Virus record (IMG/VR): IMGVR_UViG_3300031134_000466
Length of the DNA: 64,000 bases
Reading direction: 5' to 3' (one strand)
Source of the DNA: a virus
Lineage: Duplodnaviria; Heunggongvirae; Uroviricota; Caudoviricetes
The notes beneath the pieces were generated by a model, which had not been told where the DNA came from, ran no database searches, and saw nothing but the letters and a program-made list of their open reading frames with translations. Each line of letters begins with the position of its first letter. Position 1 is the first letter of the stretch. Positions 5,839 to 63,973 of this stretch are shown piece after piece. Both the position numbers and the translations under genes were made by a program.

Positions 5839-5887
5839 GATGACGTACTTATCGGCTTACACGTATAACCAGCCTATAATAGAGGTT

Positions 5888-6619
5888 ATGAATGATGTGG
5901 TTAGTGTCAACAGTCTGTTAGTGAAATACGAAGAGTTCACAGCAGTGAAAGATGTTTCTTTTTCCGTGGAAGCTGGTGAAGTGCGTGGTGTTCTGGGCGG
6001 AAACGGTGCAGGTAAATCCACAACCCTTCGAGTCCTTGGTGGAGTCATTAAACCCACCGCTGGTGAAATCACCATTGGAGGAGTGAGCACGAAAAGTTTC
6101 AAAGGCGCCAACAAAGCAAGAACGCTGACAGGGTATTGTCCTGACGTAGGTGGGCTTATTTCAGGAGCCACTCCTTTGGAACATGTTCGGCTTTTAGCTT
6201 CACTCCATCGAGACAAATCGCTGTATGAAAAAGGCCAAGTTGAAATCGAACGATTCAACTTAGCCGAATTTAAAAACACTCCAGTCTCTGGGTTCTCTCA
6301 CGGAATGATGAGACGACTCAGTGTTCTCCTTGCTTACATTTCAGCAGACAAATTACTCATTCTTGATGAGCCTTTCGACGGGGTTGACCCTCTTGGTGTT
6401 GACATTATTAACGCAGCTATCAGTGATGCTCGTGAAGCAGGCACAGCTGTCATTGTTTCCACACATCTTCAGAATCTTCTTGTTGATGTGTCAGACTCGG
6501 TAAACATCATGTCCAAAGGTGAACTGTTGCAGATTATCCCAGCTTCAGAGCTCATCGGTCCTGAAGGTGTGAACCGTTACACAACCATGCTGACTACCCA
6601 CACAGAGAAGAATGCATAA
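5888..6619 (+). CDS. ABC transporter ATP-binding protein
   Basis: Walker A GGNGAGKST, degenerate signature FSHGMMRRL, Walker B LLILDEPFDGVD. Start moved to the internal Met at 5888 because the ATG at 5837 would overlap the divergent gene's start. Confidence 0.75.
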   Translation: MNDVVSVNSLLVKYEEFTAVKDVSFSVEAGEVRGVLGGNGAGKSTTLRVLGGVIKPTAGEITIGGVSTKSFKGANKARTLTGYCPDVGGLISGATPLEHVRLLASLHRDKSLYEKGQVEIERFNLAEFKNTPVSGFSHGMMRRLSVLLAYISADKLLILDEPFDGVDPLGVDIINAAISDAREAGTAVIVSTHLQNLLVDVSDSVNIMSKGELLQIIPASELIGPEGVNRYTTMLTTHTEKNA

Positions 6620-34403: not shown

Positions 34404-35891
34404 TTAGCCTACGAAGGTTACTCCAGTAGTGGTTCTGTCATACTGTGTCCATGTTGTTCCGTTGGATGGTCCATAGAAATGGGTAGTCAAACTACCTGTC
34501 TTTGTATCAAACTCCAGAGTTCGTACAGGGTTGGTGGTGTTTGAATGGAATGTTCCCAGGTAAGAAACAATCTTGTTGCCGTTCACTCCCACATCTTCAC
34601 GGTAACCAGCTTCACCGACATGGCCAGATAAGACAACTTTGATGTTTGGGTACTGCTTGACAAGGTTGTCATACACATACTGAGCTGAGTTACTTCCATA
34701 ACTGGCTGACTGGTCAATACTTCCATCACCGTTCAAATACGAATGAGTGGAAACAATAACATTGTAGTCAGGATGTGCAGCTACGACAGTTTTTGCCCAG
34801 TCAACGACCTCAGTGCGTGGCCAGAGTTCCAGAGTCAAAACCAACCACTTTTTGTCAGCAGCGTTGAAAGTCTGGTAAGCATTGTCAACTTTTCCAGTTT
34901 CGAAGGTTGTGATACCTGGGTAACGTGAAGGACTGAAGTAGCTATTGAAAGTGGTGGTGTTTCGCACTAAAGTGCGAGTGTTCTTAGGGTCAGCAGCAGA
35001 ACCGCCAACACCTACAGCAGCTGTATCATGGTTTCCGATGGTAAGAGAATTCTGGATTTTGTTGTCATCTAACACCTTCATGGCTTTGGATGCAACAGCG
35101 TACTGTTCGTGATTTGGAGTATCCCAATTGACGACATCACCAGTATGGTTCACATATCGCAAATCTAAAGCGTTTTTGTTATCAACAAGCCATTGTGTAC
35201 GGTTCACAAATCGAGTGTCTGTTCCAACTTCTTGTTGGGTGTCTGGAATCACAGCCATTGTGAACTTGCCGTCAGCATCAGCAGGATTTACTGGCGGAGT
35301 TGTTGGTGGTGTAACAACAGGGGAAGGTTTAGCTCCGTAGAATGAGATTCCTTCGGCTGCCCAGCCGGCTGTTGTCAGGGCAGTTCTTTCGGCTTCAGTT
35401 GTCGCATAACGATGCTTACCACTTTTTTGGAAACGGTAGACTGGTTGGCTGCCAGAAAGGTTTTTGGTTGAAGCGTAGAAATTGATTCCTTGCTCTGTGT
35501 AACCATATTTACTTTGGGCAACGGCAAGTTCATTAGAGGAAGAAGATTTTGCTATCCAGATGAAATCGCCGTTCTTGTGAAGACGGTAGACTGGCACTAA
35601 CCCTGTTTTTTGGTCGTGGTTAGCTTTGAAAACAATCCCTTTGGTTTCTGTGAAGCCATAGCTGTTTTTAGCACTGTCAATTTCTTTTGAGTTGACAGTG
35701 AGTAGATTAGCTTGGCTTTTAGGGTTGATTGACTGATAAACATCTGTCGTCATTGAAGACAGAATAGATGCATCAGAGGGAGCGGTCGCAGCTGAAGCGG
35801 ATGTAGCTGTAGCGAAAGGTAGAACAAGTGTAGCTAATAGTACGACGCCTAAAGTCCTAAATCGGACAGGTTGCGTTTGATTGTGGTTCAC
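34404..35891 (-). CDS. Secreted metallophosphoesterase with three N-terminal tandem repeats of about 55 aa
   Basis: Signal peptide; repeats VYRxxKxG...TxAERTALTTAGWAAEGISFY; catalytic motifs DTQ, GDVVN, GNHD, GHVG. Confidence 0.65.
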   Translation of the reverse strand: MNHNQTQPVRFRTLGVVLLATLVLPFATATSASAATAPSDASILSSMTTDVYQSINPKSQANLLTVNSKEIDSAKNSYGFTETKGIVFKANHDQKTGLVPVYRLHKNGDFIWIAKSSSSNELAVAQSKYGYTEQGINFYASTKNLSGSQPVYRFQKSGKHRYATTEAERTALTTAGWAAEGISFYGAKPSPVVTPPTTPPVNPADADGKFTMAVIPDTQQEVGTDTRFVNRTQWLVDNKNALDLRYVNHTGDVVNWDTPNHEQYAVASKAMKVLDDNKIQNSLTIGNHDTAAVGVGGSAADPKNTRTLVRNTTTFNSYFSPSRYPGITTFETGKVDNAYQTFNAADKKWLVLTLELWPRTEVVDWAKTVVAAHPDYNVIVSTHSYLNGDGSIDQSASYGSNSAQYVYDNLVKQYPNIKVVLSGHVGEAGYREDVGVNGNKIVSYLGTFHSNTTNPVRTLEFDTKTGSLTTHFYGPSNGTTWTQYDRTTTGVTFVG

Positions 35892-39327: not shown

Positions 39328-40449
39328 TCAGTCAGCAGTTTTTCCGTTCAAGTTCCAGAATGGCTTCTCAAACTCAGGCTGAATCATTTTCCAGATGATG
39401 TCAGAGATTTTCTTCTCAGACCTGGTATCAAAATGACCTCCGCTGTGACGAGAGAATAACAAACCAGTAATGCGTTTGTCTTCTTTCTGTACAGCTGCAG
39501 CGTAGTCCTTCTGAGTGTATCCTTCAGGAAGTTCAGAAAGAATACGGTTGTAAGTTTCCTCAACTGTTGCACGCAATTCAGCATGCTCTGCAAGTAGTCG
39601 GTCACGAGTTGTTTCGACATACTCAACGAACTCATCAGGGAGACCAACAATCCATGAAGTGAAGTCACCGTCAGCTACAAGCAGCTCCCAGATGCGACGC
39701 GAAGAAGCACCTGTGATGACACGGTGAAGCTGAACGTAGTCATCCTGTTTCACTTTCACTCGAACATCACTATCCAGGAAGTGAACAACAACGCCTTCTT
39801 TGTTCTCACGACCAGGAGCGGCCAAAGCTTCAGTAAGGCTGTTGTATTCAAACTGCTCAACCTTCAACCAAGTCCATTCATCAACCTGTGATGCTGGTAC
39901 AGAGCGACCTGTTGCTGTGTTCACTCGGGCAATCAAGATGAGGTCATCCAAATCACCGTAGTTAACAACGATACGGTTTGTAGGGTAGATGATTTCCCAG
40001 ATGTAAGTTTCACCAGCAAGTGGCTCCCATTTTCCGTCGTACAGCTCCTGGTAACGTGCTGTGGCATGCAGAGCCTGCTCAGAGCTGAATGAACCTCGTG
40101 TGGAGATGTTCAGTCGACCAGTTTCAGGGTTTACATATGAAACACCCATAGAACCATCTGCTTTGTCTGTGACAACGATAGGTCCAGTCAGTGCATCCTG
40201 AGGAACATCTGGTTCGCCGTGGTTAAAGAACTTACCAAGAGGGCGGGAGACAATCTCCTGGGTGGAACCGTCAACGATAAGTCCTCGTGAAGCTAATGTT
40301 GCAGCGTTCCAGGCTCGGTCAAACTGGCATACCTGTGAGTAGTCAAAGATAGCCAGGTCAAGCGTAGGGTGAACCTGACGATTGATGTGCTTGTTCTGGA
40401 ATTCAGCTGCCCAAAGTTCAGCAGGAGCGATATCGTAAATGTGTACCAT
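39328..40449 (-). CDS. ATP-dependent RNA ligase, paralogue 1
   Basis: Nucleotidyltransferase motif I VTDKADGSMG (KxDG); shared block LASRGLIVDG...RPLGKFFNHGEPDVP with the ligase at 54122. Confidence 0.75.
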   Translation of the reverse strand: MVHIYDIAPAELWAAEFQNKHINRQVHPTLDLAIFDYSQVCQFDRAWNAATLASRGLIVDGSTQEIVSRPLGKFFNHGEPDVPQDALTGPIVVTDKADGSMGVSYVNPETGRLNISTRGSFSSEQALHATARYQELYDGKWEPLAGETYIWEIIYPTNRIVVNYGDLDDLILIARVNTATGRSVPASQVDEWTWLKVEQFEYNSLTEALAAPGRENKEGVVVHFLDSDVRVKVKQDDYVQLHRVITGASSRRIWELLVADGDFTSWIVGLPDEFVEYVETTRDRLLAEHAELRATVEETYNRILSELPEGYTQKDYAAAVQKEDKRITGLLFSRHSGGHFDTRSEKKISDIIWKMIQPEFEKPFWNLNGKTAD

Positions 40450-42792: not shown

Positions 42793-44685
<1,893 letters not shown>

Positions 44686-49519: not shown

Positions 49520-50176
49520 ATGAGAATAGTAGTAGCTGATTGTTCAGTCATTTACACAGGAAGAGGAGACACCCGTCTTCCCCGAGCAGTCCGAGCGATC
49601 ATTGTCAAAGATGATGGTTCAATCTCAGTGCATAACGACAAAAGTAACAAACCTTTGAACTATATGGGTAAAGGTAACGAGCTTTCAGAAGTTGAGCTGG
49701 AAGATTGTAAACTATGGTTCTTTGACACAAGGCAAGAAAGTCTCCGCATTACTTTACATGAAGTTATTTCTGACACTGATTTCCTCCTTGATCGAAACGA
49801 TGAAGGACTGATCCGTGACGGCACAGAGAAGCAGCTGCAGGCTTGGTTAGCAGAGAACCCAGAAGCATTAGGTGAAGGCTATACTTTCGTTCAAAGAGAA
49901 TATCAGACAGGTGCAGGAGCTGTTGATTTGTTAGTCACTGACCCTGAAGGTAACCCTGTGGCGGTAGAAGTGAAACGAGTGGCCATGATTAACAGTGTGA
50001 GCCAGACACAACGTTATGTTGAGTCGATGAAAGAGGACCCTGAGTTTGCCAATACCACTGGCATTATCGCCGCTTTAGACATTCGACCTAACACTGTGAA
50101 GTTAGCGGACAAAAAGAAAATCCGCTGTGTCACTTTACCAACATGGTGGCGTGACCCAGCGGATACTTCAATGTAA
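49520..50176 (+). CDS. NucS/EndoMS-like PD-(D/E)xK endonuclease
   Basis: GAGAVDLLVTDPEGNPVAVEVKR nuclease motif. Confidence 0.6.
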   Translation: MRIVVADCSVIYTGRGDTRLPRAVRAIIVKDDGSISVHNDKSNKPLNYMGKGNELSEVELEDCKLWFFDTRQESLRITLHEVISDTDFLLDRNDEGLIRDGTEKQLQAWLAENPEALGEGYTFVQREYQTGAGAVDLLVTDPEGNPVAVEVKRVAMINSVSQTQRYVESMKEDPEFANTTGIIAALDIRPNTVKLADKKKIRCVTLPTWWRDPADTSM

Positions 50177-50666: not shown

Positions 50667-50800
50667 GATTCTAATGTTCCTTAATCGTTGTCAGCTTTAT
50701 GAGCGGTCAAAGAATTCTATCATCAACGGCTAAAGCACATAGTATTTGACAGCTGGCTGGGTTTCATGGTAAGTTGGAGTATCTTAAGTTAGGAAACAAA

Positions 50801-51706
50801 ATGTCACAGATAATGCGGATTCACCGTGGAGTGCAAGGCTCTGGTAAATCCACAGAAGCCATCCGTTGGGTGAACCAGGACCCGTTAAACCGTGCCCGTG
50901 TGAACCGTGATGACATTCGTCTCAGCCAGTTCGGCTCCTACGAGCTTCCTCAGGAACTCGAAGTTGCTGTTACCAAAGTAGAGCATGCCATCATCACCGC
51001 ACTTCTTGCTGCACGCAAAAGTGTTGTTGTTGACAATGTGAACCTGAAAGCCAAGTACGTTAAAGAGTACCTGCTTATTGCGGAGAAAGCCAACGTACCT
51101 GTTGTGCATCAGGACTTCCCTGTGGAGTTGGAGACAGCTCTTGCTCGTAACGCTGCTCGTGACCGTAAAGTCCCTGCACATGTGATTGAGACAACATTCA
51201 AGCGTTACATTCAGAGTGGCAAGTTCCCTCCGTTCCCCGTACTTGACTACGAAGCCGCTGCAGCAGGAATCTATGTTCCTGATGAGACTCTGCCTAAAGC
51301 TATCCTTTTGGATGTTGACGGCACAGCCATGAAGATGGGTTCACATCGTGGACCGTTTGACTGGCACAAAGTCATTGATGACGAGCCTAACCCGCCTGTT
51401 GTTGAAACAGTAAAAGCTTTGCATGCTCAGGGCTACAAAGTTGTTGTCATGTCTGGTCGTGATGAAGTCTGCAAAACAGACACGTTACTTTCTCTGGAAG
51501 TAGCTGGTGTTCCTGTGGATGAAATCTACATGAGACCCCACAACGATTACCGTAAAGACAACATCATCAAGCGTGAACTTTTTGATGCTCACATTCGGGA
51601 GCGTTTCAACATCCTGTTAGCTTTGGATGACCGGAACCAGGTTGTGGACGCTTACCGTCGTGAGCTGGGTCTTCCTGTCTTTCAGGTTGACTACGGAGAC
51701 TTCTAA
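50801..51706 (+). CDS. pnk: Polynucleotide 5'-kinase/3'-phosphatase (T4 Pnk-like)
   Basis: N-terminal P-loop GVQGSGKST kinase; C-terminal HAD LLDVDGT...SGRD...LDDR; AGGAAA SD. Confidence 0.8.
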   Translation: MSQIMRIHRGVQGSGKSTEAIRWVNQDPLNRARVNRDDIRLSQFGSYELPQELEVAVTKVEHAIITALLAARKSVVVDNVNLKAKYVKEYLLIAEKANVPVVHQDFPVELETALARNAARDRKVPAHVIETTFKRYIQSGKFPPFPVLDYEAAAAGIYVPDETLPKAILLDVDGTAMKMGSHRGPFDWHKVIDDEPNPPVVETVKALHAQGYKVVVMSGRDEVCKTDTLLSLEVAGVPVDEIYMRPHNDYRKDNIIKRELFDAHIRERFNILLALDDRNQVVDAYRRELGLPVFQVDYGDF

Positions 51707-51757: not shown

Positions 51758-52729
51758 TTAAATTTCTCGCAGCTGCACAATTGTCAGTTCAGTTGCTTCA
51801 CCTTTTTTATTGACCCTTTTGACTTTCACATCATTAGCAACAACTTCGAATTTTGCACCACGAGGAATGATGAACTCATACTCTCTTGGACCTTGCGATG
51901 AAATAGCTGTGATTGGGGCTCCACTTTTTGTAAGAATCTGTAAAGAAACATTGATGTTGTCTTTGGAAGGTAAATCTTGAGGATTCAAACTTGTCGATAA
52001 GAAGAATTTAGGTTCGTAAGTGCTACCAACAGGGAAATGTTTGTCGAGGTTTTGAGCGTCATCACTTGAATGATATCCTTTTTCATCATAAAGATGATGA
52101 CGGCGGTAAACCATCACGCCTTCTTCTGCTGGTTCGTGTTTAGCAAAAGCATCATCCAGGATAGTTACAGCTGCATCCAACGTTTCAGGTGCAACATTTT
52201 TTGCGTACGGATTTGTTGAAGCTGAAAGATGGCCGTTGATGTCAGCATAGCCATCTTCTGAATACCAGCGAAGAGTAGCTATTTCAGTATCATCCAGTTT
52301 GGCACTCCAGTTTTGGGAATCTGCCATGCTGTTCAACAGGTCAGCATGTTTGTAATGCATCTCTTCAAGAGTGTCACCAGTTTCGAAAAACGTCGGAGAA
52401 GTGTAAGCAGCTTTTTGTGCTTTTTTGTGGGTGATGACTTTACGATCCGCAACAGCAGCTAATCTTCTGGCTCGTTCTTGAGAAAGCGCTTCGTATTCTT
52501 CTGCATGCCATTCCTGCGTTGGATTCTTTTTGATCTGTCTTTCCAAAGACTTTAGATAAGCTGGTGTTAGTTTGTACTCTGCTTCAGCTTTTCTTCTTAC
52601 CGCTATTAGCTTCTCAAGCTCTGGGTCTTTGCGGTTGTCCATGAAAGCACTGAGAACCGCTTGATGAGCTTTAGCGTAGGTGGCTGCAGCATGAGCTGAA
52701 CAACGGGGACCAGGTTTTGGGTAACACAT
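51758..52729 (-). CDS. Mono-ADP-ribosyltransferase (R-S-E class) with the Cys/His N-terminal module
   Basis: MCYPKPGPRCSAHA N-terminus; VYRR, LSTSL, PREYEFIIPRGAKFEVV. Confidence 0.8.
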   Translation of the reverse strand: MCYPKPGPRCSAHAAATYAKAHQAVLSAFMDNRKDPELEKLIAVRRKAEAEYKLTPAYLKSLERQIKKNPTQEWHAEEYEALSQERARRLAAVADRKVITHKKAQKAAYTSPTFFETGDTLEEMHYKHADLLNSMADSQNWSAKLDDTEIATLRWYSEDGYADINGHLSASTNPYAKNVAPETLDAAVTILDDAFAKHEPAEEGVMVYRRHHLYDEKGYHSSDDAQNLDKHFPVGSTYEPKFFLSTSLNPQDLPSKDNINVSLQILTKSGAPITAISSQGPREYEFIIPRGAKFEVVANDVKVKRVNKKGEATELTIVQLREI

Positions 52730-54121: not shown

Positions 54122-55363
54122 ATGTCAACTACAAGAAAACCTCCTTATCATCACAGCGATGGTACAAACTGCTGGACTAAAGATTGTTCGATCAGAGGCC
54201 GTGAAGATACAGAAAAAGCTGCTTTCTTCAAGCAAGTAGAAACAGCTGCTGAGACTGTTGTTCCAACCAATGAATTGCCTCCTCTGTCAGCTTTTCAGAA
54301 AGCCTATGATGATGGTCGCATTGAGTGCAGCCGCCACCCTGAACATCCTTATGTGACTTACAAGTATTCCAGAACAACTCAGTTTGCTTCTGACTGGGAT
54401 GATGTGACCTTAGCGTCTCGTGGTGTCATCTTCAATGAGGAGACAGGCGAGATTGTTGCTCGTCCATTTGCTAAGTTCTTCAACCATAACGAACCGTCAG
54501 TTCCCAGAGACAAATTACATGGCCGTATTAGTGTAACTGACAAGCTGGACGGTTCTTTAGGAATTGGTTATGTTGATGAGAACGGTAAGTTCAACATTGC
54601 AACCTCTGGAAGCTTTATCTCTGAACAGGCAAAACGTTCTACAGAGCTCTATCATGAGCGTTATGAAGGCAACTGGAAGCCAAATCCTAAGTTGACCTAC
54701 ATGTGGGAAATCATCTACCCAGAAAATCGTGTCGTGGTCAACTATGGCGATGAAGATGACTTGCATCTCATCGGTGCTGTCAACAAACGAACTGGTAAAT
54801 CAGTTCCGTTGCGTGACATCAAAGAATGGAAGTGGAAAAGAGCTGAAGAGTACAAAGACTTCTCCTCCTTGGATGCTGTTCTTCACTCTCCTGAAAGAGA
54901 AAACCGTGAAGGTTTCATTGTTCATTACATCGATACTGATACCCGCGTGAAATACAAGCATGCAGATTATCTTGAGCTCCATCGTAACCGTACTGGCGTG
55001 ACTTCCAAAACTATCTGGCGTAAAATGCGTATGGGTGAAGATATGGCAGGTTGGAAAGAGAACATGCCTGAAGAGTTCAGTGAGTTCGTATCCACTCGTC
55101 AAGCTAAAATCACTGCCGGATATAACAAAGAAATTGCCCAAATTACTGATGAGCATGGCACTTTCAAAGCAACTCTTCCTGCTGGTTATGACCGTAAGAC
55201 TTTTGCTACCACTTTGAAAAACTCACCTCTTGTACCAGCCGAAAACAAAGCTTTCGTCATGAACCTTGAGTTCAACGGCAGTGCTGTTGGAAGTGTTGTT
55301 CAATCTCATAAGATTTGGGACCGTGTGAAACCTGAGGACGAGAACACCTTGTGGAACATGTAA
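54122..55363 (+). CDS. ATP-dependent RNA ligase, paralogue 2
   Basis: VTDKLDGSLG motif I; paralogous to the ligase at 39328. Confidence 0.75.
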   Translation: MSTTRKPPYHHSDGTNCWTKDCSIRGREDTEKAAFFKQVETAAETVVPTNELPPLSAFQKAYDDGRIECSRHPEHPYVTYKYSRTTQFASDWDDVTLASRGVIFNEETGEIVARPFAKFFNHNEPSVPRDKLHGRISVTDKLDGSLGIGYVDENGKFNIATSGSFISEQAKRSTELYHERYEGNWKPNPKLTYMWEIIYPENRVVVNYGDEDDLHLIGAVNKRTGKSVPLRDIKEWKWKRAEEYKDFSSLDAVLHSPERENREGFIVHYIDTDTRVKYKHADYLELHRNRTGVTSKTIWRKMRMGEDMAGWKENMPEEFSEFVSTRQAKITAGYNKEIAQITDEHGTFKATLPAGYDRKTFATTLKNSPLVPAENKAFVMNLEFNGSAVGSVVQSHKIWDRVKPEDENTLWNM

Positions 55364-55364
55364 T

Positions 55365-55652
55365 TCAAGTAAAGAGGTTCCACAAAAAGTCTCCGACCCC
55401 GAAGATAATAAAGAACAAGTTTATCATTAGAGCAGAAAAGAAAATTTTTTGCGAAACATTGGAGGCTTGACTTTGATTATCAATAAGATTACCAGCTCCA
55501 GCAAATAAGAGGACCAAACCCCACCAAGCCGCTCCCTTAAAAACAAAAATATAAATTACAGCCAGAACAACCAAGATAACATAATAAAACGCGGCAAAAT
55601 AAAGAAGTGCTTGAGTATCTTGTTGTTCTTCATTGGTAGAATTAGTTTTCAC
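55365..55652 (-). CDS. Small membrane protein (3 TM)
   Basis: Hydrophobic helices. Confidence 0.4.
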   Translation of the reverse strand: MKTNSTNEEQQDTQALLYFAAFYYVILVVLAVIYIFVFKGAAWWGLVLLFAGAGNLIDNQSQASNVSQKIFFSALMINLFFIIFGVGDFLWNLFT

Positions 55653-55746
55653 CTTGGACCTCCTAATTTTAAATCGGCTGATTATTTTACGAATTGTACT
55701 GTAATTATAGTCATTCTGACGATAAAGATGGTATGATTAGGATGTT

Positions 55747-56412
55747 ATGAAGAACACATACGGAATTCTCGGCGGATATGGGGCGGTAGCCACCCTACAT
55801 CTCCAGCAGCTGCTCGTGAAGCGAGTCCTCAGCACTGGACAGTACGCTGATATTGCCTTCCCTCGTATGGTAATTTCCAATCTGCCTGAAGACATCATCA
55901 ATGCTGAAGGACATATCAGCAGCCTTGGTAGCCTGCGGACTGAACTTGGTAAAACAGCTCCTCTATTCCAAGGAGCCACAGATGTTTATGTCATTTGTAA
56001 CACCTTCCATGTCGAAGAAGAGTTCATGCAGCGAGTCTTCGCTAACAAACTACATTCTGTTCCGGCTTTAACCAGTCAAGCTGTCGTAGATGCTGGATAC
56101 TCCAAACCTCTTATCGTAGGTTCCAAGCTGACTTCTCAGGATAACCTGTACAGTCATACAGCTTACACCTCAACTAACATGTTTGCGGATGAGCTAATCA
56201 CTGCTGGAATGAAGTACCAGACATCTCACTCTCAGCTGGCAGATGTCATAGCTGCTGCCAAACAGGCTAGCTCAGACTGCATTGTTTTAGGTTGCACAGA
56301 TTTGTCCGTGATGGCTGACACTCTCCGAACCATGACTGCACTTCCCGTAATCGACTCCGTTGAAGCAGTCGCCAACCATATTTACAACTCCCATACGAAA
56401 GATGAATCGTGA
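55747..56412 (+). CDS. Asp/Glu/hydantoin racemase superfamily protein (aspartate-racemase-like)
   Basis: GILGGYGAVAT, catalytic VICNTFH and VLGCTDL, PVIDSVE. Confidence 0.7.
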   Translation: MKNTYGILGGYGAVATLHLQQLLVKRVLSTGQYADIAFPRMVISNLPEDIINAEGHISSLGSLRTELGKTAPLFQGATDVYVICNTFHVEEEFMQRVFANKLHSVPALTSQAVVDAGYSKPLIVGSKLTSQDNLYSHTAYTSTNMFADELITAGMKYQTSHSQLADVIAAAKQASSDCIVLGCTDLSVMADTLRTMTALPVIDSVEAVANHIYNSHTKDES

Positions 56413-57374
56413 AAGTCTACAACGACACAGTAACCATGACTGCAGAGCTGGCTCAGACCTTAGAGCAATTGAGAGCTGTGCGGGCTTTTGACGCTACAGA
56501 ATGGATTGAGCGTAAGGTTGTCCTAATCAACCAGTACTTCGCTCAGAACAAGCTCTCAGGGGCTGTAGTAGGTGTTTCTGGTGGCATCGACTCAGCTGTA
56601 GCCCTTTCACTTCTTGTCAAAGCATCCCAGCAAGACAACAGCCCAATTCAGAAGATTGTCCCTCTTCTACTTCCTGCTCTTTCTTACGAAGGTGCAACTA
56701 ACCAAGACGGGGCAGTTCAGCAGGCTACTGACCTATGCCAGAACCTTGGACTGAAGCCAGCTGTTTTCACTAAGCTCACATCTCTTTCCCAAGTGATTAC
56801 TTCTGAACTGGAAGACATTCTGGACATCAAATCAACAGACTGGGCTAAAGGACAGCTAGTGGCTTACACCAGAACCCCAGTCCTGTACAACACCTGCTCA
56901 ATCCTTACTGACGCCGGCTACCCTGCACTGGTTGTAGGAACCACAAACCTTTCCGAAGGTGGATACCTCGGTTATGTCGGAAAAGCTTCAGATGGTATGG
57001 TTGACCTGCAAGTAATTTCTGATTTGTACAAGTCAGAAGTGTACAAAGTCGCAGCTTTACTTGAAGTTCCTGAAAGCGTTATGAAAGCTACTCCTACAGG
57101 GGACATGTACGACGGTCGTGAAGATGAAACAGTTTTCGGAGCTTCTTACGACTTCGTAGAGCTGTTTCATCTATGGCTACAGGCACGCAGCGTCCCATTG
57201 AAACTTCTTCGAGATGCCCACTTTGTCACAGGAGCTAAAAACCTGCAAAAACTGCACGACTACAACGCACATAAGTACACCTACGGAACTCCATCCATTC
57301 ACCTGGACATTATGAACGCAGCAATCCCAAACGGATGGAACAATCAGCCTTGGAGGCCCCAGAATGGCAACTAA
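56409..57374 (+). CDS. NAD synthetase-like PP-loop ATP pyrophosphatase (divergent NadE)
   Basis: VGVSGGIDSAV PP-loop; NadE-like length; ATGA overlap with the upstream gene. Confidence 0.65.
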   Translation: MKVYNDTVTMTAELAQTLEQLRAVRAFDATEWIERKVVLINQYFAQNKLSGAVVGVSGGIDSAVALSLLVKASQQDNSPIQKIVPLLLPALSYEGATNQDGAVQQATDLCQNLGLKPAVFTKLTSLSQVITSELEDILDIKSTDWAKGQLVAYTRTPVLYNTCSILTDAGYPALVVGTTNLSEGGYLGYVGKASDGMVDLQVISDLYKSEVYKVAALLEVPESVMKATPTGDMYDGREDETVFGASYDFVELFHLWLQARSVPLKLLRDAHFVTGAKNLQKLHDYNAHKYTYGTPSIHLDIMNAAIPNGWNNQPWRPQNGN

Positions 57375-58104
57375 ATTCGTAAACCAAGTCAACTTCGAAA
57401 TCCCTACTGTTGCTCACACAGTTCAAGTGAGACCGTTCCCTGAACTTGACCGTACAGCGGTAGTGATTCCTGAACTCGTCCCTGCCGAGGAAAAAGTCAG
57501 TATCATGGCAGCGTTGGAAGACTCCAACTGGCAGCCAGTGTCAGTGACAGGAATGTCAGGAAACTGGAAAGAAGGTGACCCTATTGGTTCTTACCGTGCT
57601 TCCAACTACACTCCTGAGTATGCTGAAGTTCTGTGGAACAGAATCAAACACGGTTTCCCTACTGTACGCACATTCACAGATGCTGATAACACCGACTTCG
57701 ATGGTCATGAGCTGTGGGAACCCATTGGCGTGTCACCTCTTCTTCGATTCATCAAATATGAAGAAGGCGGCTGGCTTGTAGTTCATTACGATGCTCCGTA
57801 TGTCGAATCAGAAGATGTTCGCACACTCCAAAGCCTTGTCGTATATCTGGAACACCCAGGTGAACTTCACGGAGGAGCAACCCGCTACCTTCATGACCCT
57901 CAGGCTCATCTTCCTGTTACTCAGCGTGAACTCAACGACGAATACCGTGCTGCTGAAGAAGATGAAGTGAGACTCCGCTTCGCTCCTGAAGATGGAACAG
58001 CTGTAGTCTTCGACCACCGCCTTCTGCATGACGCTGAAAAGGTCACAGGAACTGGCACAAAAACAATCATTCGAACAGACATTATGTACAGGAAAGTACG
58101 ATGA
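57364..58104 (+). CDS. 2OG-Fe(II) oxygenase family protein
   Basis: H-x-D (HYDAPY) and distal His (RLLHDAE) facial triad. Confidence 0.55.
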   Translation: MATKFVNQVNFEIPTVAHTVQVRPFPELDRTAVVIPELVPAEEKVSIMAALEDSNWQPVSVTGMSGNWKEGDPIGSYRASNYTPEYAEVLWNRIKHGFPTVRTFTDADNTDFDGHELWEPIGVSPLLRFIKYEEGGWLVVHYDAPYVESEDVRTLQSLVVYLEHPGELHGGATRYLHDPQAHLPVTQRELNDEYRAAEEDEVRLRFAPEDGTAVVFDHRLLHDAEKVTGTGTKTIIRTDIMYRKVR

Positions 58105-59624
58105 ATTTAGACAGATACTTCCAGGCTCTTTACGAAAGAACCAATAGTAAGCAGGACTTAGTAACAGCAGGTTGGATTGAAAACAAGCCGCTACGCATCA
58201 ACCCGCATGTGCGATTCTACACAACCCCTCTGCAAGCTATTCGTGACGCGGGCAAAAAGGACGTATCTGTCTTGTTCTACCCTGGTTGTTTCGCTCCAGT
58301 CCATGAAGGTCACCTTGGGGCTATGAGGCTGGCCAAAGAAGCAATTGAAACCCAGACAGGCGAGACTGTAGCTGCAGGCTATTTCACCCCTGACCATGAT
58401 AACTACATCATGCGTAAAACTCATGACGAACGTTTCATCGCACCTAACCGCATCGCTCTTCTCCATGAAGCAGTAGAAAATGAACCCTGGATGCAGGTGG
58501 ACGACTGGGCTTCACTGTACGCTCCCACTGATTTGAACTTCACAACACTATATGACAGGTTCAACCTTTACCTGAAGCGTTGGTTACCTGACTTGAACAT
58601 CAAGCTGTACATGGTTTTTGGTGGAGACAACTACATGTTTGCGAACAGTTTCACTGAATACGGACACGGTGTTTGTGTGCCAAGAGAAGGAGCTCAGATG
58701 GACTTGAGCTTAGTTCACCCTGATGCCAAAAAGCGGGTTATTTTCAGCGAAAAAGTCTGTACAGACCATTCTTCTACAGCTGCACGAGCAGCAAACCCTG
58801 GAGCTATCGATATCCACGGCAGAAGTGCATTAGGTTCCACCTATGTACTTCGTGAAGACTTGGACTTAGCTTTCCGAGAGAACCCTACTACTTACTCGAA
58901 CAAAATTATTGCTGACTCTGTAGCTATTCTTTTGCAGGCGCATGTGCCGTACGAGAAAGTCAAAGTGAAAAGAGTTCCCATTATCAGGCAGATGGCTAAC
59001 CATACTGAGACAGAGAATGTGATTTCCTTAGACTGTTTCTGGAAAGCAGAGCAGAACCTTGAAATTTCTCGCCTGTTTTCAACTGGAGGCAGTCAGCACC
59101 ATGCCATCAAATACGTCAACCGTCCTGGCTCGCCGGCTCTTCAAGAGCAGGTAGAAGCAATTCCTGCTGGAGTGTACACTCTCGTAGATGATGACATTGC
59201 TACTGGGGAGACAATGAGTTTTGTTTCCAACATGCTGGAAACGCACGATGTTGTTGTTGATAAGCAGGACAGCCTGATTTCCGAGCTGGGTTCTGACTTG
59301 TACGATGTAGTTGATTTGCGAGACTTTGTTCTTGGAACCGAACACGGCGGACTGACGGTTGCAACTCCTACAGGAGAAACGACAAGAATGCCTTACATCG
59401 CTCCTTATGTGAATCTTGTAAGCCGTGCTCGCATTAACCCTGACCGGGTGTTCAGTTTCTCCACCGAACTGTGGAAATTGAACTATGCACTTTACCGTAA
59501 TACGAAAACTACAGTAGGTGACATCAAAGAACATCAGGACTTCACCATGTTCGGTTTTGCCGAAGACATGACAGTGGCTGACTTGTGCCAAAAGCATCTT
59601 CAATTGATGACTGAATTGCAGTAA
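58101..59624 (+). CDS. Bifunctional protein: NMN/NaMN adenylyltransferase-like domain fused to a type-I phosphoribosyltransferase (Prs/PRT-like) domain
   Basis: N-terminal GCFAPVHEGH (HxGH nucleotidyltransferase motif); C-terminal PRPP-binding loop VYTLVDDDIATGETM. Confidence 0.65.
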   Translation: MNLDRYFQALYERTNSKQDLVTAGWIENKPLRINPHVRFYTTPLQAIRDAGKKDVSVLFYPGCFAPVHEGHLGAMRLAKEAIETQTGETVAAGYFTPDHDNYIMRKTHDERFIAPNRIALLHEAVENEPWMQVDDWASLYAPTDLNFTTLYDRFNLYLKRWLPDLNIKLYMVFGGDNYMFANSFTEYGHGVCVPREGAQMDLSLVHPDAKKRVIFSEKVCTDHSSTAARAANPGAIDIHGRSALGSTYVLREDLDLAFRENPTTYSNKIIADSVAILLQAHVPYEKVKVKRVPIIRQMANHTETENVISLDCFWKAEQNLEISRLFSTGGSQHHAIKYVNRPGSPALQEQVEAIPAGVYTLVDDDIATGETMSFVSNMLETHDVVVDKQDSLISELGSDLYDVVDLRDFVLGTEHGGLTVATPTGETTRMPYIAPYVNLVSRARINPDRVFSFSTELWKLNYALYRNTKTTVGDIKEHQDFTMFGFAEDMTVADLCQKHLQLMTELQ

Positions 59625-59641
59625 GATGATAGACATGATGC

Positions 59642-60238
59642 ATGCTTGAAATACTTACAGCGGTAGGTCTTGCTTTAGCGGCAGGGTTGAACGCTTACAT
59701 TCCTCTGATTGCTGTCAGTTTGTTATCAAAGTTCACTGATTTTTTCACTCTTCCAGGAAACTGGTCATGGATGGAAGACAACTGGACATTAGCGATCTTG
59801 ATTGCTTTAGCTTTAGTAGAGTTCTTTGCTGACAAAATAGCTGCAGTTGACTCGTTGAATGATGTCATCCAAACAGCAGTCCGTCCAACATCAGGCGGAT
59901 TGCTGTTTGCTGCAGGTACCCATGTAACAGATGTTCCTGTGACTCAGATTAGTAATTTTGTGAGTTCTCCAGGCTTTCCTATGTTCATCATTGGTTTGAC
60001 TGTTGCTTTGCTTCCTCATTTGATGAAGATGTTCATCAGGCCGCTTATTAACGCAACGATGAGTGGAATGGTGACACCCATTGTCAGTTTTGGTGAAAAC
60101 ATTCTTACAGTAGGTTTGGTTGCTATGGCTATATTCATTCCAGTGCTGGTACCAGTAGCAGTAATACTGGTCATTGTTATAGGAGTACGGATTTTCCGAA
60201 ACCTCACCGCGAAAAAGAGTAAAACAGCAACAGCCTGA
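59642..60238 (+). CDS. Polytopic membrane protein (DUF4126-like)
   Basis: 4-5 TM helices. Confidence 0.45.
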   Translation: MLEILTAVGLALAAGLNAYIPLIAVSLLSKFTDFFTLPGNWSWMEDNWTLAILIALALVEFFADKIAAVDSLNDVIQTAVRPTSGGLLFAAGTHVTDVPVTQISNFVSSPGFPMFIIGLTVALLPHLMKMFIRPLINATMSGMVTPIVSFGENILTVGLVAMAIFIPVLVPVAVILVIVIGVRIFRNLTAKKSKTATA

Positions 60239-60330
60239 AGTTGTTCCGATAGACTGAGTTAGCATGCTTAGCATGTCTGCCCTGGCAGTAAACCAGTTTA
60301 TTCGATTTAGACAACAAAGGAGTACCTATC

Positions 60331-61548
60331 ATGGTGCAAAAACCAGAACGCGGGCGTTACTTAGAGCTTGAAGGTGTACGTGTTTCGTATAAACACAAAG
60401 ATGATTCCATCCACCTCACAGCAACAGACCCAGATGTTCCTCAGATAAACATCACCCTAAACAAAGGGACAGCGACAGAAGATTCGCTTAGAGATTTGCT
60501 CGTAGAGTACGGTTTAATTAGAGAATCAGAGTCTAATGCTGTTACCGAAATGGAACCTATCCCATATTACGCGGGTAACCCATTCTCAGCATTGCTGGCA
60601 GAATCACATATCCCGTCAGACAGAGCCAAGAACATTCTTCTTACAGGACAGCCAGGTTCAGGTAAAACCGTGGCCGCATCCTATGCAGCATTTCTTGCAC
60701 AAGGAATGAACATGCCTACTTTCGTCATGGGGCTTGCAGTTGACTATCTGAAAACGCTCAATGAAGACACCCAGGTTCTGATGCTGACAAAAATGGAATC
60801 AGGCTACCTGAATCCATTCAAAACAAAAATGTCAACAGAGCAGATTCTTCACTTTATCAACACTTTGACACTTCCAAGAGATGCTTACTATCAAGCACGA
60901 GCAAACCAGACGATAACAACACTCATCAAACAACAGTATGAAACTAAGCAGCCTTCATTGACTGGACTGCTACAAGTAATCAGCAAGTATGAAGAACTCC
61001 AATATGAAACAGCTGCTCTTTCCCATTTGGGTCTTAGCCCTGTAGGAGCTCCATTCTTTGGATACTCAGAGAACGTATTAGTGATTGATCCTGACAAGGA
61101 TTATGTCTTTGATGCCGCTGAAGTTCCGCTTGTAGCACCAGTAGAAGCATTGGACACTACTCAGGCAAGACAGAACACTGCAATCATTCAAGCAGTGTTC
61201 CATTTTGTTAGACAGCATTCACGACCAAGTAGTCAACCAAAAATGCTGATTGTCGACGGGAGGAATTACCAGTATGTTACTGAACTGAACCAGCTCAGTA
61301 GGTTAGCCCGAAGCCTAAATTTGGTTATGCTCACAGTAGGTGAACTTGAAGAAAATAACAGTCAATACTCTGACTTCATGGCTTACCGCTCTTCAACCGC
61401 AGAGACATCTGAACTTTTTGGTAAAAGGCTTGACACGCTTTCTTCAGGTCAATCTTATTGGAGAAACGAAGACGGAGAGGTCTTCTTTGTCCCTCGACCT
61501 ACCCTTCCAGCATCGTTTGCAAGAATTTTTGACACAATACCCAGATAA
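60331..61548 (+). CDS. P-loop NTPase of unknown function
   Basis: Walker A LLTGQPGSGKTV; Walker-B-like MLIVDG. Confidence 0.55.
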   Translation: MVQKPERGRYLELEGVRVSYKHKDDSIHLTATDPDVPQINITLNKGTATEDSLRDLLVEYGLIRESESNAVTEMEPIPYYAGNPFSALLAESHIPSDRAKNILLTGQPGSGKTVAASYAAFLAQGMNMPTFVMGLAVDYLKTLNEDTQVLMLTKMESGYLNPFKTKMSTEQILHFINTLTLPRDAYYQARANQTITTLIKQQYETKQPSLTGLLQVISKYEELQYETAALSHLGLSPVGAPFFGYSENVLVIDPDKDYVFDAAEVPLVAPVEALDTTQARQNTAIIQAVFHFVRQHSRPSSQPKMLIVDGRNYQYVTELNQLSRLARSLNLVMLTVGELEENNSQYSDFMAYRSSTAETSELFGKRLDTLSSGQSYWRNEDGEVFFVPRPTLPASFARIFDTIPR

Positions 61549-61590
61549 TACCTGCCAAACACACAGGTTATCTCATGGTAGAATAGTTAA

Positions 61591-62238
61591 ATGAACACCA
61601 TCCAGTTCCACGCCCAACACGGTGAAGACCCAAACACTGTAACTATTCAGCCCAGTGAAAGTAGCAAGTTTGCTGACATTATCAACAATATAGGTAAAGC
61701 TTTTCTTCAGCCTGCCTGGAATCAAGACATCCTTCGTAAAGCAATAGCAGCAGAGAACTCTCTTTCGCAAGAGACAAGAGATATAGTGCGCTGGGCTGAA
61801 CAGTTCACCACTAAGTTCAATAACAAGGAATTCAACCTTGTTGTAGAAGAGCAGGTATTGGATAGTTACAGTATCAACTTGAACACAGTGCAAAGCGTTG
61901 GCAACAACAGTATGAAACTCCTTGCCAGGCTTCACCATGCGACCCGAATGTGGATTGCTGTAGAAGATACAGACTGGGTAGCAGATATCATCCAAGATGC
62001 CCACCCCGACATCTTTCAGAAGGACAAAGGCTGGCTGGATGTCATCAATCTTCTCAGACAGAATCATGCTGTCCCTGTCATTGTCACCAGTAATAACAAC
62101 AGTTGGAATTGGAACACAGATAAGGCTGAAGAGTTGACGTTTGAACAGCAGCTCACTCCGCACACATGGGAAAGTTACATGTATGGGCACGGATATGATG
62201 CATTGGCAGTCGTTCGAAAACTTTCTCAAAGGAAATAG
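61591..62238 (+). CDS. Hypothetical protein
   Basis: ORF only. Confidence 0.5.
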
Positions 62239-62312
62239 TCACAAAAACGTGCTTTTTCGTCAATATGACGATATACTGTAATAAGAATGGTCTAAGGAAG
62301 GAAACCCGTATC

Positions 62313-63158
62313 ATGACCAAGCTCCAGAAACAGATTATTAACACTCTTGGGGTAAAACCCGTCATCAATGCCGAACAGGAGCTACGCACTCGTGTAGATT
62401 TCCTCAAAGACTTCACCCGTAATGCTGGCACCAGAGGATTTGTACTTGGAATCAGTGGTGGACAGGACTCTGCTCTTGCCGGCTACATTGCACAGACAGC
62501 TGTCCGTGAACTCCGCGACGAGACGGGTGAGAACTACCAGTTCTTAGCTCTTCTTCTTCCTTACGGGACTCAGAAAGACGCTGATGATGCAATCACCATC
62601 GCCCGTGACTTCATCAAGGCTGACCAGGTAATTGAGTACAACATCAAGCCTGCAGTGGATGCTTTCACTGACCAGTACAATGACATCGCTGGCTGGTCAG
62701 GCGATGAAGCTGATAACCTCAGCGATTACCATAAAGGTAACGTCAAAGCCCGCACCCGTGCCGTAACACAGTACGCTTACGCTGGTACCCATCAGCTGCT
62801 TGTTGTAGGTACAGACCATGCTGCTGAGGCAGTATCAGGCTTCTTCACCAAGTTCGGTGACGGTGCAGCTGACGTTCTCCCTTTGAGCGGTTTGAACAAA
62901 CGTCAGGGCAAAGAGCTTCTTCGCTTGGCAGGTGCTCCCGAGTTCGTCATCACCAAAGCTCCCACAGCGGACCTTCTGGACAACAAAGCAGGTCAGGCTG
63001 ATGAGACTGAGCTGGGTATTACATACGATGTTCTTGACGACTACCTTGAAGGTAAAGATGTCAATGTAGTTGCAGCTCAGAAAATTGAACTGCGTTACCT
63101 GATGACAGAACACAAGCGTCAACTCCCAGTTGACCCTGCAGCAACATGGTGGAAGTGA
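62313..63158 (+). CDS. nadE: NH3-dependent NAD+ synthetase
   Basis: [15 protein letters not shown]-loop; close to B. subtilis NadE along its whole length; AAGGAAGGAAA SD. Confidence 0.9.
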
Positions 63159-63174
63159 CCCTCTACTGAACAAT

Positions 63175-63223
63175 AGCGTTAGTGCTACAACTCCGTGTGA
63201 TATGGATTTGTAGCACTAACGCT
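63175..63223 (+). terminator. Hairpin terminator
   Basis: agcgttagtgctaca/tgtagcactaacgct. Confidence 0.6.
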
Positions 63224-63269
63224 ACTTAATGGGTGTGTCAACTAAGTGTGGGCTACTCTTGAATAGAGA

Positions 63270-63632
63270 ATGCTGTTACCTACAATTCGAGGTAGCAAAG
63301 TTGACAAGTTGAGCAAAGGTAAAAACGTGGACAGTTACATCTTTTGGAGAGTGTCCAACTCAGAAGACAATATCTCATGGATAGCCGCTCAAGAAGATTT
63401 TGGTGAACACCGAATTTTCGTGTGGGTAGGCAATACAAGACTTTGGCATCATCACGACGATTTGGAAAATGATTTCTATAACCGTGACAGAATAATGACC
63501 TACCTAAGGATCACTGCTGAAGAAGTAAATAGTCAGCTACCGTTCCAAGCATTGTTTGGTGAACGAACTGAGTGGATTTTGGACATTCTAAAGCAAGCTC
63601 CTGTTCGAACACATCAAGAAATAGGGTTATAA
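63270..63632 (+). CDS. Hypothetical protein
   Basis: ORF only. Confidence 0.45.
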   Translation: MLLPTIRGSKVDKLSKGKNVDSYIFWRVSNSEDNISWIAAQEDFGEHRIFVWVGNTRLWHHHDDLENDFYNRDRIMTYLRITAEEVNSQLPFQALFGERTEWILDILKQAPVRTHQEIGL

Positions 63633-63655
63633 CAATTTGACTTACTTTCAACTGA

Positions 63656-63973
63656 ATGGTAGAATCAGATATGACTATCAATATTGCTATTAACAGTCCC
63701 CTTACCGAGAACTATTCTTTGGATCAGAAGAACGCTTTAGCTAAACAAATTCTTGCTTTGATTGAAGCCAACAAAATCGATTTTGTCACCACTGTTGGAG
63801 AAGCTCGTCCTTACATTGGTCGGAATATCAGCATGTGGAGTTTTTCTGGGAACGATATTGAAGGTGTCCTGGAGCAGGTTGGATTCTCCGCTCAGGATAA
63901 TCGAGACTACGTTGTCGTAGACGGTAAAACTCATTACACTATCAAATCTTTCCCTATTACTGTAAAGCCTTAG
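63656..63973 (+). CDS. Hypothetical protein
   Basis: ORF only. Confidence 0.45.
   Translation: MVESDMTINIAINSPLTENYSLDQKNALAKQILALIEANKIDFVTTVGEARPYIGRNISMWSFSGNDIEGVLEQVGFSAQDNRDYVVVDGKTHYTIKSFPITVKP

Follow-up and report, generated by a model that had tools for sequence, protein, structure and literature searches.

The 64,000-nucleotide stretch of DNA analyzed here (hereafter the window), from IMG/VR virus record IMGVR_UViG_3300031134_000466, carries near its end a run of eight plus-strand genes, numbered g1 to g8 in order, that spans positions 55747 to 63158 and includes relatives of several enzymes of NAD+ biosynthesis (Table 1). Among their products are two NadE-like proteins (g2 and g8), a 2-oxoglutarate (2OG)-Fe(II) oxygenase (g3), and a predicted adenylyltransferase (NMNAT) for nicotinamide mononucleotide (NMN) or nicotinic acid mononucleotide (NaMN) that is fused to a domain with the fold of a type I phosphoribosyltransferase (PRTase) and a loop for phosphoribosyl pyrophosphate (PRPP) (g4). 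All eight open reading frames (ORFs) are present where an earlier note on this DNA had placed them, and they were also predicted by an independent gene caller on a metagenome contig of near-identical sequence (L073; JGI 3300031413 Ga0308164_10000007, 788,683 bp). We ran each ORF against Pfam, and the domain labels that the note had attached to g1 through g8 hold on profile searches. Its description of overlapping stops and starts is accurate for the g1/g2 (GTGA, 4 nt), g2/g3 (11 nt), and g3/g4 (ATGA, 4 nt) junctions, whereas gaps of 17, 92, 42, and 26 nt lie between successive genes from g4 through g8. The start of g8 was also probably assigned 48 nt too far upstream, at position 62265. This gene most likely begins at position 62313 and encodes 281 aa, because a Shine–Dalgarno (SD)-like sequence (AGGAAGGAA) lies upstream of that position and because the lengths of homologues and the L073 gene call of 281 aa agree with it.

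Table 1. Positions of the genes and domains of the NAD locus, of related loci in other genomes, and of other features of the window. Positions refer to the window unless another sequence is named.
Feature	Position	Strand	Basis or remark
g1, Asp/Glu-racemase-superfamily protein, 221 aa	55747–56412	+	PF01177 Asp_Glu_race; module accessory
g2, divergent single-domain NadE-like PP-loop ATP-pyrophosphatase, 321 aa	56409–57374	+	PF02540 NAD_synthase; core member
g3, prolyl-4-hydroxylase-like 2OG-Fe(II) oxygenase, 246 aa	57364–58104	+	PF13640 2OG-FeII_Oxy_3; core in aerobic lineages
g4, whole: CTP_transf_like/NMNAT and PRTase-fold fusion	58101–59624	+	Profile search
g4 N-terminal domain, residues ~1–242, predicted NMN/NaMN adenylyltransferase	58101–58826	+	Profile and fold
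g4 C-terminal domain, residues 243–507, very divergent type I PRTase fold	58827–59624	+	PRPP loop VDDDIATGET intact
g5, DUF4126 membrane protein	59642–60238	+	PF13548, 153 bits; outside conserved module
g6, putative P-loop NTPase	60331–61548	+	Walker A GQPGSGKT; outside conserved module
g7, protein without assigned function	61591–62238	+	No library match; outside conserved module
g8, canonical NH3-dependent NAD+ synthetase NadE	62313–63158	+	NF001979
R-S-E type ADP-ribosyltransferase, NAD+ consumer, 3 kb upstream of module	51758–52729	−	PF03496 ADPrib_exo_Tox, 74.6 bits
WGR-PARP, NAD+ consumer	26372–27676	+	PF00644, 102.7 bits; PF05406, 42 bits
L049 operon	7015–14150 of L049		Uncultured Gammaproteobacteria metagenome-assembled genome CAZREA010000001
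Module region of phage ME3	21842–26833 of L080, equal to 216842–221833 of KU935715
RNA-repair set: PNKP (kinase and HAD phosphatase) and two T4 Rnl1-like RNA ligases	50774–51706, 54122–55363 (+), 39328–40449 (−)
dNMP-kinase-like N terminus and C-5 cytosine DNA methyltransferase split by Hint/intein, 905 aa	18430–21147	+
Full-length Hsp70/DnaK	42826–44685		772 bits
DUF285 repeat protein	2847–4235
NucS endonuclease	49520–50176
Ribonucleotide reductase small subunit	12332–13324
DUF5648 and metallophosphatase protein	34404–35891

Profile searches, an AlphaFold2 (AF2) model, and Foldseek all indicate that g4 was correctly labeled as an NMNAT fused to a type I PRTase. When a profile built from 31 homologues of g4 is compared with the PDB, the best match is a plant NMNAT (9rpk; E 5.8e-22), followed by fungal and human NMNAT1/3 (E 1e-16 to 1e-14). 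The NMNAT is therefore of the NadD/eukaryotic type, with 9rpk, 9iw1, and human NMNAT1/3 as its best matches, and the GxFxPxHxGH and SSTxxR motifs are invariant across the family. The AF2 model of the full-length protein, whose predicted local distance difference test (pLDDT) score is 90.3, retrieves only NMNAT/NadD structures from the PDB (E 1.7e-8 and below, target TM score 0.6–0.7). Identification of the N-terminal domain as an NMNAT is thus well supported by its sequence and predicted fold.

Because the search with the entire g4 model returned the NMNAT half only, the C-terminal domain (265 residues) was modeled and searched on its own. The resulting model (pLDDT 92.5) has a type I PRTase fold that is remote from every solved PRTase structure. 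The earlier note had proposed a fold comparison with Prs, and the domain proves to resemble Prs no more closely than it does OPRT or HGPRT. At the sequence level, the PRPP loop alone can be aligned with a protein of known structure (APRT, E 0.02). This loop, VDDDIATGET, is invariant in the g4 family along with several arginines, such that the domain combines the core fold of type I PRTases with their acidic-acidic-x-x-(S/T)-G-x-T motif. The base on which it would act cannot be read from homology. A weak Pfam match of the gut homologue to “PRTase-CE” (PF24390, E 0.007), a term absent from the literature, was not used.

The two NadE-like proteins share 27% identity and differ in how closely they conform to known NAD+ synthetases. 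The g8 protein exceeds the cutoff of NF001979 (346.9 versus 250 bits), carries the SGGxDS motif of the PP-loop, and is 59 to 62% identical to ammonia-dependent NAD synthetases of Bacillus, results that bear out its earlier designation as a canonical NH3-dependent NadE. The g2 protein matches PF02540 (110 bits) and passes TIGR00552 at the domain level (107.6 bits, cutoff 63.65) but falls far below all NCBIfam equivalog cutoffs for NadE, including those of NF010587 (its best, 122.3 versus 255) and NF001979 (74 versus 250). Since only TIGR00552 is passed, g2 can be called a member of the NadE family, which does not fix its substrate. Its SGGIDS P-loop is invariant among relatives. A profile of the g2 family finds the NadE of Francisella (3fiu) as the best match in the PDB (E 4e-33), ahead of Bacillus- and E. 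coli-type NadE proteins (E 1e-20 to 1e-17), the type that includes g8. Given that Francisella NadE acts as an NMN synthetase (PMC3376133), it is conceivable that g2 carries out amidation at the mononucleotide level.

The g3 protein matches PF13640 with 34 bits, above the cutoff, and it has the HxD...H triad and basic 2OG residue of this superfamily, and the 14 family members compared all retain H141, D143, H218/H222, and R237. Its nearest relatives in the PDB are P4H and PKHD hydroxylases, which are matched weakly (E 0.01–0.06). The g1 protein scores 38.8 bits with PF01177 (cutoff 31) and matches NCBIfam amino-acid racemase models over the full length, in each case below the equivalog cutoff. 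Its catalytic cysteines, in CNT(F)H and GCTD, are invariant in nine module-linked homologues from viral loci and loci of the candidate phyla radiation (CPR).

We compared 63 nonredundant loci that contain a g4 homologue, counting partners within 10 kb. The resulting co-occurrence counts are lower bounds because the gene for a NadE-like protein fused to a 2OG oxygenase was missed in two loci (L006 and L038), where a longer antisense ORF had been chosen. A g2-type gene is present in at least 56 of the 63 loci, and an oxidase gene is present in 53. The latter encodes a 2OG oxygenase in 22 loci, a 290-aa radical S-adenosylmethionine (rSAM) enzyme, here called rSAM290, in 24, and an rSAM enzyme resembling RaSEA in seven. 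No locus combines the 2OG enzyme with either of these rSAM enzymes; the former is found in lineages of aerobic type, whereas the rSAM enzymes are found in Clostridia, CPR bacteria, and phages of the human microbiome. In CPR and viral loci, the RaSEA-like enzyme (TIGR01210, 197 bits) stands in for the 2OG oxygenase. The other enzyme, rSAM290, weakly resembles MoaA and viperin. A racemase-like g1 gene recurs in about nine of the loci, and a canonical NadE gene in only four (the window, L001, L004, and L015).

The association among g2, g3, and g4 is most evident from gene fusions. In at least 11 bacterial loci (L032, L036, L040, L042–L046, L048, L051, and L052), a single ORF of approximately 1100 to 1200 aa encodes NadE-like, 2OG oxygenase, NMNAT, and PRTase domains in the g2-g3-g4 order. 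Carriers of this fusion include Myxococcota and the isolates Legionella shakespearei and Paraliomyxa miuraensis, and both ends of the Legionella protein are confirmed by NCBIfam. N-terminal extensions of 250 to 420 aa on the GC-rich myxobacterial versions were rejected as artifacts of longest-ORF calling. Six more loci (L006, L008, L018, L028, L037, and L049) encode two-domain proteins in which the 2OG portion is joined to the C-terminal side of the NadE-like portion. With the three genes fused into a single ORF in 11 or more bacterial loci, their adjacency is far beyond chance.

The conserved module consists of g1 through g4 (three to four genes), to which g8 is loosely linked, and not of all eight genes as was proposed earlier. 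The intervening genes g5 through g7 are unrelated spacers. Homologues of g5 adjoin the module only in the closest relatives of the window, L001 and L073, and those of g6, which gives sub-threshold AAA/STAND hits in Pfam, are likewise confined to these two contigs. No match to g7 was found in Pfam, PHROGs, NCBIfam, or PADLOC, and its one weak homologue lies in L001. An additional 151-aa gene is present between the DUF4126 and P-loop genes in L073 (positions 5449 to 5904) and is missing from the corresponding site of the window (60238 to 60331), which indicates strain-level indel variation within the nonconserved spacer region.

Relatives of g4 are widespread. They include 44 close metagenomic sequences, several of which reside on contigs of 412 to 878 kb; 41 loci in species-representative bacterial genomes; and 18 module-bearing IMG/VR contigs, mostly of jumbo size (180–465 kb). 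An exhaustive profile search recovered at least 670 clusters of the family (50% identity, E ≤ 1e-30), and 14 of the top 150 clusters have lengths of 1069 to 1208 aa. The module is carried mostly by cellular genomes, with bacterial examples in gut Clostridia, six CPR lineages, Chthonomonadales, Myxococcota, Legionella shakespearei DSM 23087, and alpha-, gamma-, and betaproteobacteria. Searches of INPHARED (50,697 deposited phage genomes) by megablast with the locus and by tblastn with g4 gave no match.

The gut Clostridia, both human and animal, carry the module in a conserved operon of approximately nine genes (L010–L013, L014–L025, L029, L033, and L047). Its products, in gene order, are a LysA-like, decarboxylase-like pyridoxal phosphate (PLP) enzyme, an rSAM enzyme of 291 aa, the NadE-like protein, the NMNAT–PRTase protein, a GNAT (fused to the g4 homologue in L033), a SPASM-type rSAM enzyme, a ~600-aa protein without assignment, small proteins, and a methyltransferase-like protein. 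Several contigs place this operon beside a large serine recombinase gene and Lamassu or helicase genes. The NadE-like protein of these bacteria (P0153) occurs in 150 index blocks. In addition, an ATP-grasp ligase of approximately 335 aa, resembling the ATP-grasp domains of cyanophycin synthetase and GshAB (230 bits, partial match), adjoins the module in L026, L031, L034, L041, and L044, which represent CPR bacteria, Pseudomonadales, and Legionella shakespearei. Some of the CPR loci in this group also hold a gene trio with MoxR-like AAA and VWA members.

One cultured phage carries a relative of the module in unfused form. When viral structures were searched by Foldseek with the C-terminal domain of g4, one match was significant (E 3e-8, target TM score 0.68), a 212-aa uncharacterized protein of vB_AbaM_ME3, a jumbo phage of Acinetobacter baumannii. 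The module of this phage consists of ME3_305, ME3_299, and ME3_298. ME3_299 has the PRTase fold and overlaps the start of ME3_298 by 4 nt; ME3_298 is annotated as “NAD synthetase” and is closer to g2 than to g8; and ME3_305, located 1.3 kb upstream, is a clear member of the g3 oxygenase family (178 bits). A macrodomain protein (ME3_296) is encoded two genes downstream of ME3_298, and an NMNAT and an ADP-ribose (ADPR) pyrophosphatase are encoded elsewhere in the ME3 genome.

Several neighboring genes tie the module to NAD+ metabolism. Regulators with Nudix and NrtR_WHD domains (up to 82.7 bits) adjoin it in five loci (L015, L030, L049, L050, and L053) from two CPR lineages, a gammaproteobacterium, and a Clostridium. 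In the gammaproteobacterial locus L049, the gene order is NrtR, NAMPT (NadV), NMNAT/PRTase, racemase-like, and NadE-like fused to 2OG oxygenase. The NMNAT/PRTase gene of this locus is split by a frameshift between approximately 10744 and 11029, which reflects either an assembly error or a pseudogene. The idea that NAMPT had displaced the PRTase in L049 was rejected because a tblastn search shows that the PRTase portion is present beyond the frameshift. These arrangements resemble NrtR-regulated salvage operons of the nadV-prs-nadM type, in that CPR, gammaproteobacterial, and clostridial loci have NrtR, and in one instance NadV, next to the module. They differ from such operons in that the enzymes encoded beside NrtR are the novel ones, and the window itself has neither NrtR nor NadV. 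The presence of the module in genome-reduced CPR bacteria also makes cofactor supply a likelier role than an exotic secondary pathway. Thus, the assertion of the earlier note that the locus concerns NAD is supported by the N-terminal domain of g4, by g8, by the family membership of g2, and by NrtR, NAMPT, and NadE genes that neighbor the module elsewhere.

The reading we favor, to which we assign an about even chance, is that g1 through g4 together with g8 constitute a compact pathway to a pyridine dinucleotide, most likely NAD+. Because two carboxylate-amidating enzymes are encoded, such a pathway would proceed through deamidated intermediates, from nicotinate to NaMN and nicotinic acid adenine dinucleotide (NaAD). 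In the scheme we propose, the C-terminal domain of g4 would combine PRPP with a pyridine carboxylate, in the simplest case nicotinate, to yield NaMN, and the NMNAT domain, a well-supported step, would adenylylate the mononucleotide. As suggested by its family, g2 would then adenylate the carboxylate and produce an amide at the level of either the mononucleotide or the dinucleotide, and g8 would perform the ordinary amidation of NaAD to NAD+, which is likewise well supported. The observed linkage of g3 to g2 suggests an obligatory oxidative step coupled to the NadE-like enzyme, which an rSAM enzyme would perform in anaerobic lineages. The two-cysteine accessory g1 may handle a co-substrate that resembles an amino acid. 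In a giant phage-like genome, the product would sustain NAD+ for replication and for the NAD+-consuming enzymes encoded in the same window, a WGR-PARP and an ADP-ribosyltransferase, and pathway output would incidentally buffer NAD+ depletion.

This scheme shares with the Preiss–Handler pathway its predicted NaMN adenylyltransferase and NAD synthetase (the N-terminal domain of g4 and g8), an implied PRPP-dependent first step, and the clustering of its genes, here probably phage-borne. It differs from that pathway in lacking PncB, whose place is taken by the type I PRTase-fold portion of the NMNAT fusion; no match to PncB (PF04095) was found in g1 through g8 or in 30 other window ORFs scanned. 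A further difference is the extra, divergent NadE-like enzyme that is obligately tied to a 2OG oxygenase or an rSAM enzyme, along with a racemase-like accessory. The route used by Francisella, in which NadE* converts NaMN to NMN and NadM follows, is similar in that the g2 profile is best matched by 3fiu and in that a eukaryote-type, dual-specificity NMNAT could use NMN. However, the Francisella route involves no oxygenase, PRTase fusion, or racemase, and the overall sequence similarity of g2 to its enzyme is approximately 25 to 30%.

A number of points weigh against the favored reading. The nicotinate, nicotinamide, and quinolinate PRTases known to us are all of type II, so that one of type I would be without precedent, and we know of no NAD pathway that includes a 2OG oxygenase, an rSAM enzyme, or a racemase. 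Indeed, a simple Preiss–Handler interpretation leaves g1 and g3 with no role. The presence of a second, canonical NadE beside g2 suggests that g2 does something other than plain amidation of NaAD. The nine-gene operon that surrounds the g2–g4 pair in Clostridia looks more like a cluster for a specialized metabolite. The PRPP loop of the stand-alone ME3_299 domain is degenerate (DHDIVNGIG), which calls for caution regarding catalytic activity in the ME3 lineage. Moreover, the enzyme activities of the module proteins are predictions from sequence and structural models, and the viral nature and host of the window are likewise inferred.

Some of these difficulties would be eased by an alternative that we nevertheless consider rather unlikely, in which g2 acquires its amide nitrogen independently of ammonia. 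In this scheme, g2 would ligate an Asp/Glu-type amino acid, perhaps a D-form provided by g1, to the adenylated carboxylate of nicotinate. Hydroxylation by g3 of the carbon beside the nitrogen would then permit collapse to the amide (NMN or NAD+) and an oxo-acid, with rSAM enzymes serving this purpose in anaerobes. The scheme is consistent with the fusion of NadE-like and oxidase domains in at least 17 loci and with the mutual exclusion of 2OG and rSAM enzymes, and it would explain why g2 coexists with an NH3-dependent NadE. It is also consistent with the resemblance of one replacing rSAM family to RaSEA, which cleaves a lysine adduct whose nitrogen stays on archaeosine. Other chemical precedents are PurC/PurB, ArgG/ArgH, wherein ArgG shares the PP-loop superfamily with NadE, and PHM/PAL. 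As in ArcS/RaSEA, PurC/PurB, and ArgG/ArgH, the module would pair a ligase with a cleaving enzyme, and accessories that handle amino acids recur beside it (the two-Cys racemase, the LysA-like PLP enzyme, and the ATP-grasp ligase resembling cyanophycin synthetase). However, the argument draws on gene context and chemical analogy, and unlike in those three systems, the substrate, the adduct, and its cleavage are hypothetical. The racemase is found in only about nine of the 63 loci, the weak likeness of rSAM290 to MoaA and viperin says nothing about C–N bond cleavage, and the target of the oxidase might just as well be the ring or a different substrate.

A second alternative, also doubtful, is that the product is not NAD+ but a modified or analogous dinucleotide, such as one whose pyridine is hydroxylated or conjugated to an amino acid, or another nucleotide with a heterocyclic carboxamide, which would serve as a specialized metabolite, an inhibitor, or a private cofactor. 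This possibility accommodates the oxygenase, rSAM, and racemase components, which no NAD route known to us employs, and the failure of g2 to reach any NadE equivalog cutoff. It also fits the clostridial operons, with their two rSAM enzymes, GNAT, PLP enzyme, methyltransferase-like protein, and large unassigned proteins, which are located on serine-recombinase islands beside defense genes. Against it stand the NrtR, NAMPT, and canonical NadE genes that adjoin the module in several phyla, the complete conservation of the NMNAT motifs, and the minimal genomes of CPR bacteria, in which secondary metabolism is unlikely. Less probable again is a self-contained NAD+ route in which both novelties hold, such that a type I PRTase replaces the type II pyridine PRTases and the amide nitrogen comes, with no need for free ammonia or glutamine, from a ligated amino acid by oxidative dealkylation, using a 2OG enzyme in aerobes and an rSAM enzyme in anaerobes.

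The interpretation offered in the earlier note, that the cluster rebuilds NAD+ from ADP-ribose and nicotinamide as a dedicated counter-defense, now appears improbable. Phage pathways of this type are known as NARP1 (Adps and Namat) and NARP2 (Nampt and Nmnat) (bioRxiv 10.1101/2024.02.11.579819) and NARP3 (PnuC and a NadR-like protein), which was published in 2026 (PMC13464706). These show that phages do counter NAD depletion, and the module is like them in being a phage-encoded route that would end in NAD+, in its NMNAT step (as in NARP2 and NARP3), and in having a PRTase-type fold (as in Adps). The context is phage-like and includes further counter-measure genes close by, which encode PNKP and two Rnl1-like RNA ligases. 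Eighteen IMG/VR contigs hold related modules, as does ME3, whose NadE-like gene lies two genes away from one for a macrodomain protein.

The defining partners of the NARP systems, however, are missing. Neither the two-PRTase, Prs-like Adps nor the NAMPT-family Namat of NARP1 is present, as g4 has a single PRTase domain that is not specifically Prs-like, no NAPRTase or NAMPT_N domain was found in g1 through g8, and a tblastn search of the whole window with the NAMPT of L049 returned nothing. NARP2 joins Nampt to a NadM-type Nmnat that is usually fused to Nudix; here there is no Nampt, and the NMNAT is fused to a PRTase fold. With regard to NARP3, the only membrane protein, g5, belongs to DUF4126 and is not PnuC, and g4 matches NadR only in the HIGH motif (E 0.05–0.6) and has no ribosylnicotinamide kinase domain. 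The entire window is without a NAMPT/Namat-family gene, a two-domain Prs-like kinase, Nudix, PnuC, or NadR. Furthermore, two amidating enzymes imply intermediates at the nicotinate level, which nicotinamide could enter only by way of a host PncA, and the route therefore looks deamidated.

A dedicated anti-defense role also finds no support in the distribution of the family, which is mostly cellular and includes single-polypeptide forms in free-living bacteria. PADLOC gave no match for g1, g2, g4, g5, g7, g8, or the gut homologues, and only a generic Cas-associated “2OG” match for g3 and a weak mad8 match for g6. It remains plausible that raised NAD+ could help against NADase-based defenses. 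The gene content does differ from that of NARP1 and NARP2, as was noted earlier, but the accompanying suggestion of a third route has been overtaken by NARP3 and by the report in 2024 of jumbo phages with nicotinamide riboside (NR) salvage, nicotinamide (NAM) salvage, and pncB-nadD-nadE clusters (PMC11662467). The module of NadE-like, 2OG oxygenase, and NMNAT–PRTase proteins is not mentioned in that report, the NARP1/2 preprint, the NARP3 paper, a survey of viral NAD–ADP-ribose systems (PMC9503650), or a survey of NAD synthetases (PMC3376133). The module is an undescribed combination of enzymes, most likely for NAD biosynthesis and phage NAD supply, and it is not a member of the NARP group.

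Chance adjacency in a gene-dense genome, to which we give almost no credence, is consistent with the lack of conservation of g5 through g7 and with scans of positions 55300 to 63700 that found fewer promoter-like sites than shuffled sequences (5 versus 10.7) and terminator candidates within the noise of shuffled controls, but it is refuted for g1 through g4 by the ordered g2-g3-g4 fusions in at least 11 loci and by co-occurrence across phyla and viruses, and it stands only for g5 through g7.

The window fits a huge phage, although this origin is an inference. Its coding density is approximately 88%, the median intergenic gap is 84 nt, and nine gene pairs overlap. No tRNAs, no housekeeping bacterial genes, and no capsid or terminase gene were found within it. 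The same lineage is represented by contigs of 789 kb (L073) and 878 kb (L001; ENA ERZ27247405 k141_830180, 878,479 bp), and no capsid or terminase genes were seen in the stretches of these contigs that were examined. An 841-kb genome, BF3, has been claimed as the largest phage (bioRxiv 10.1101/2025.01.14.633092); if L073 and L001 are complete, nonchimeric phage genomes, they rival or exceed it. SD-like motifs precede 14 of 60 window genes, compared with a 10% background, and inference of the host domain from this is therefore weak; a k-mer search of upstream regions found no recurrent motif.

Most window ORFs longer than 350 aa have no Pfam or PHROG match, and a 590-aa ORF has none among INPHARED phages. 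In addition to the features listed in Table 1, the window encodes an SNF2 protein and a YqaJ exonuclease, the latter sharing only 26 to 31% identity with RecE-like genes of INPHARED phages. The RNA-repair genes are of note for their position. One of the Rnl1-like ligases corresponds to phrog_562 (217 bits). In the window, L001, and L004, the PNKP–ligase pair immediately precedes the NAD module. L007 has PNKP only in this place and adds 2H-SAK and Thg1.

NAD biosynthesis is generally taken as a closed book, in which few enzyme families serve for pathway reconstruction, drug targeting, and the recognition of phage counter-defense genes, and current annotation labels the parts of this module piecemeal or not at all. 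If the module makes NAD+, it would close gaps in the pathways of CPR bacteria and of other organisms with reduced genomes, establish a new specificity class of PRTases, and bring oxygen- or radical-dependent chemistry into NAD synthesis, and giant phages would gain another handle on the NAD+ pool of their hosts. If the product differs from NAD+, then phages and bacteria would share an unknown nucleotide metabolite. Acinetobacter phage vB_AbaM_ME3 and Legionella shakespearei, both in culture, make the module tractable.

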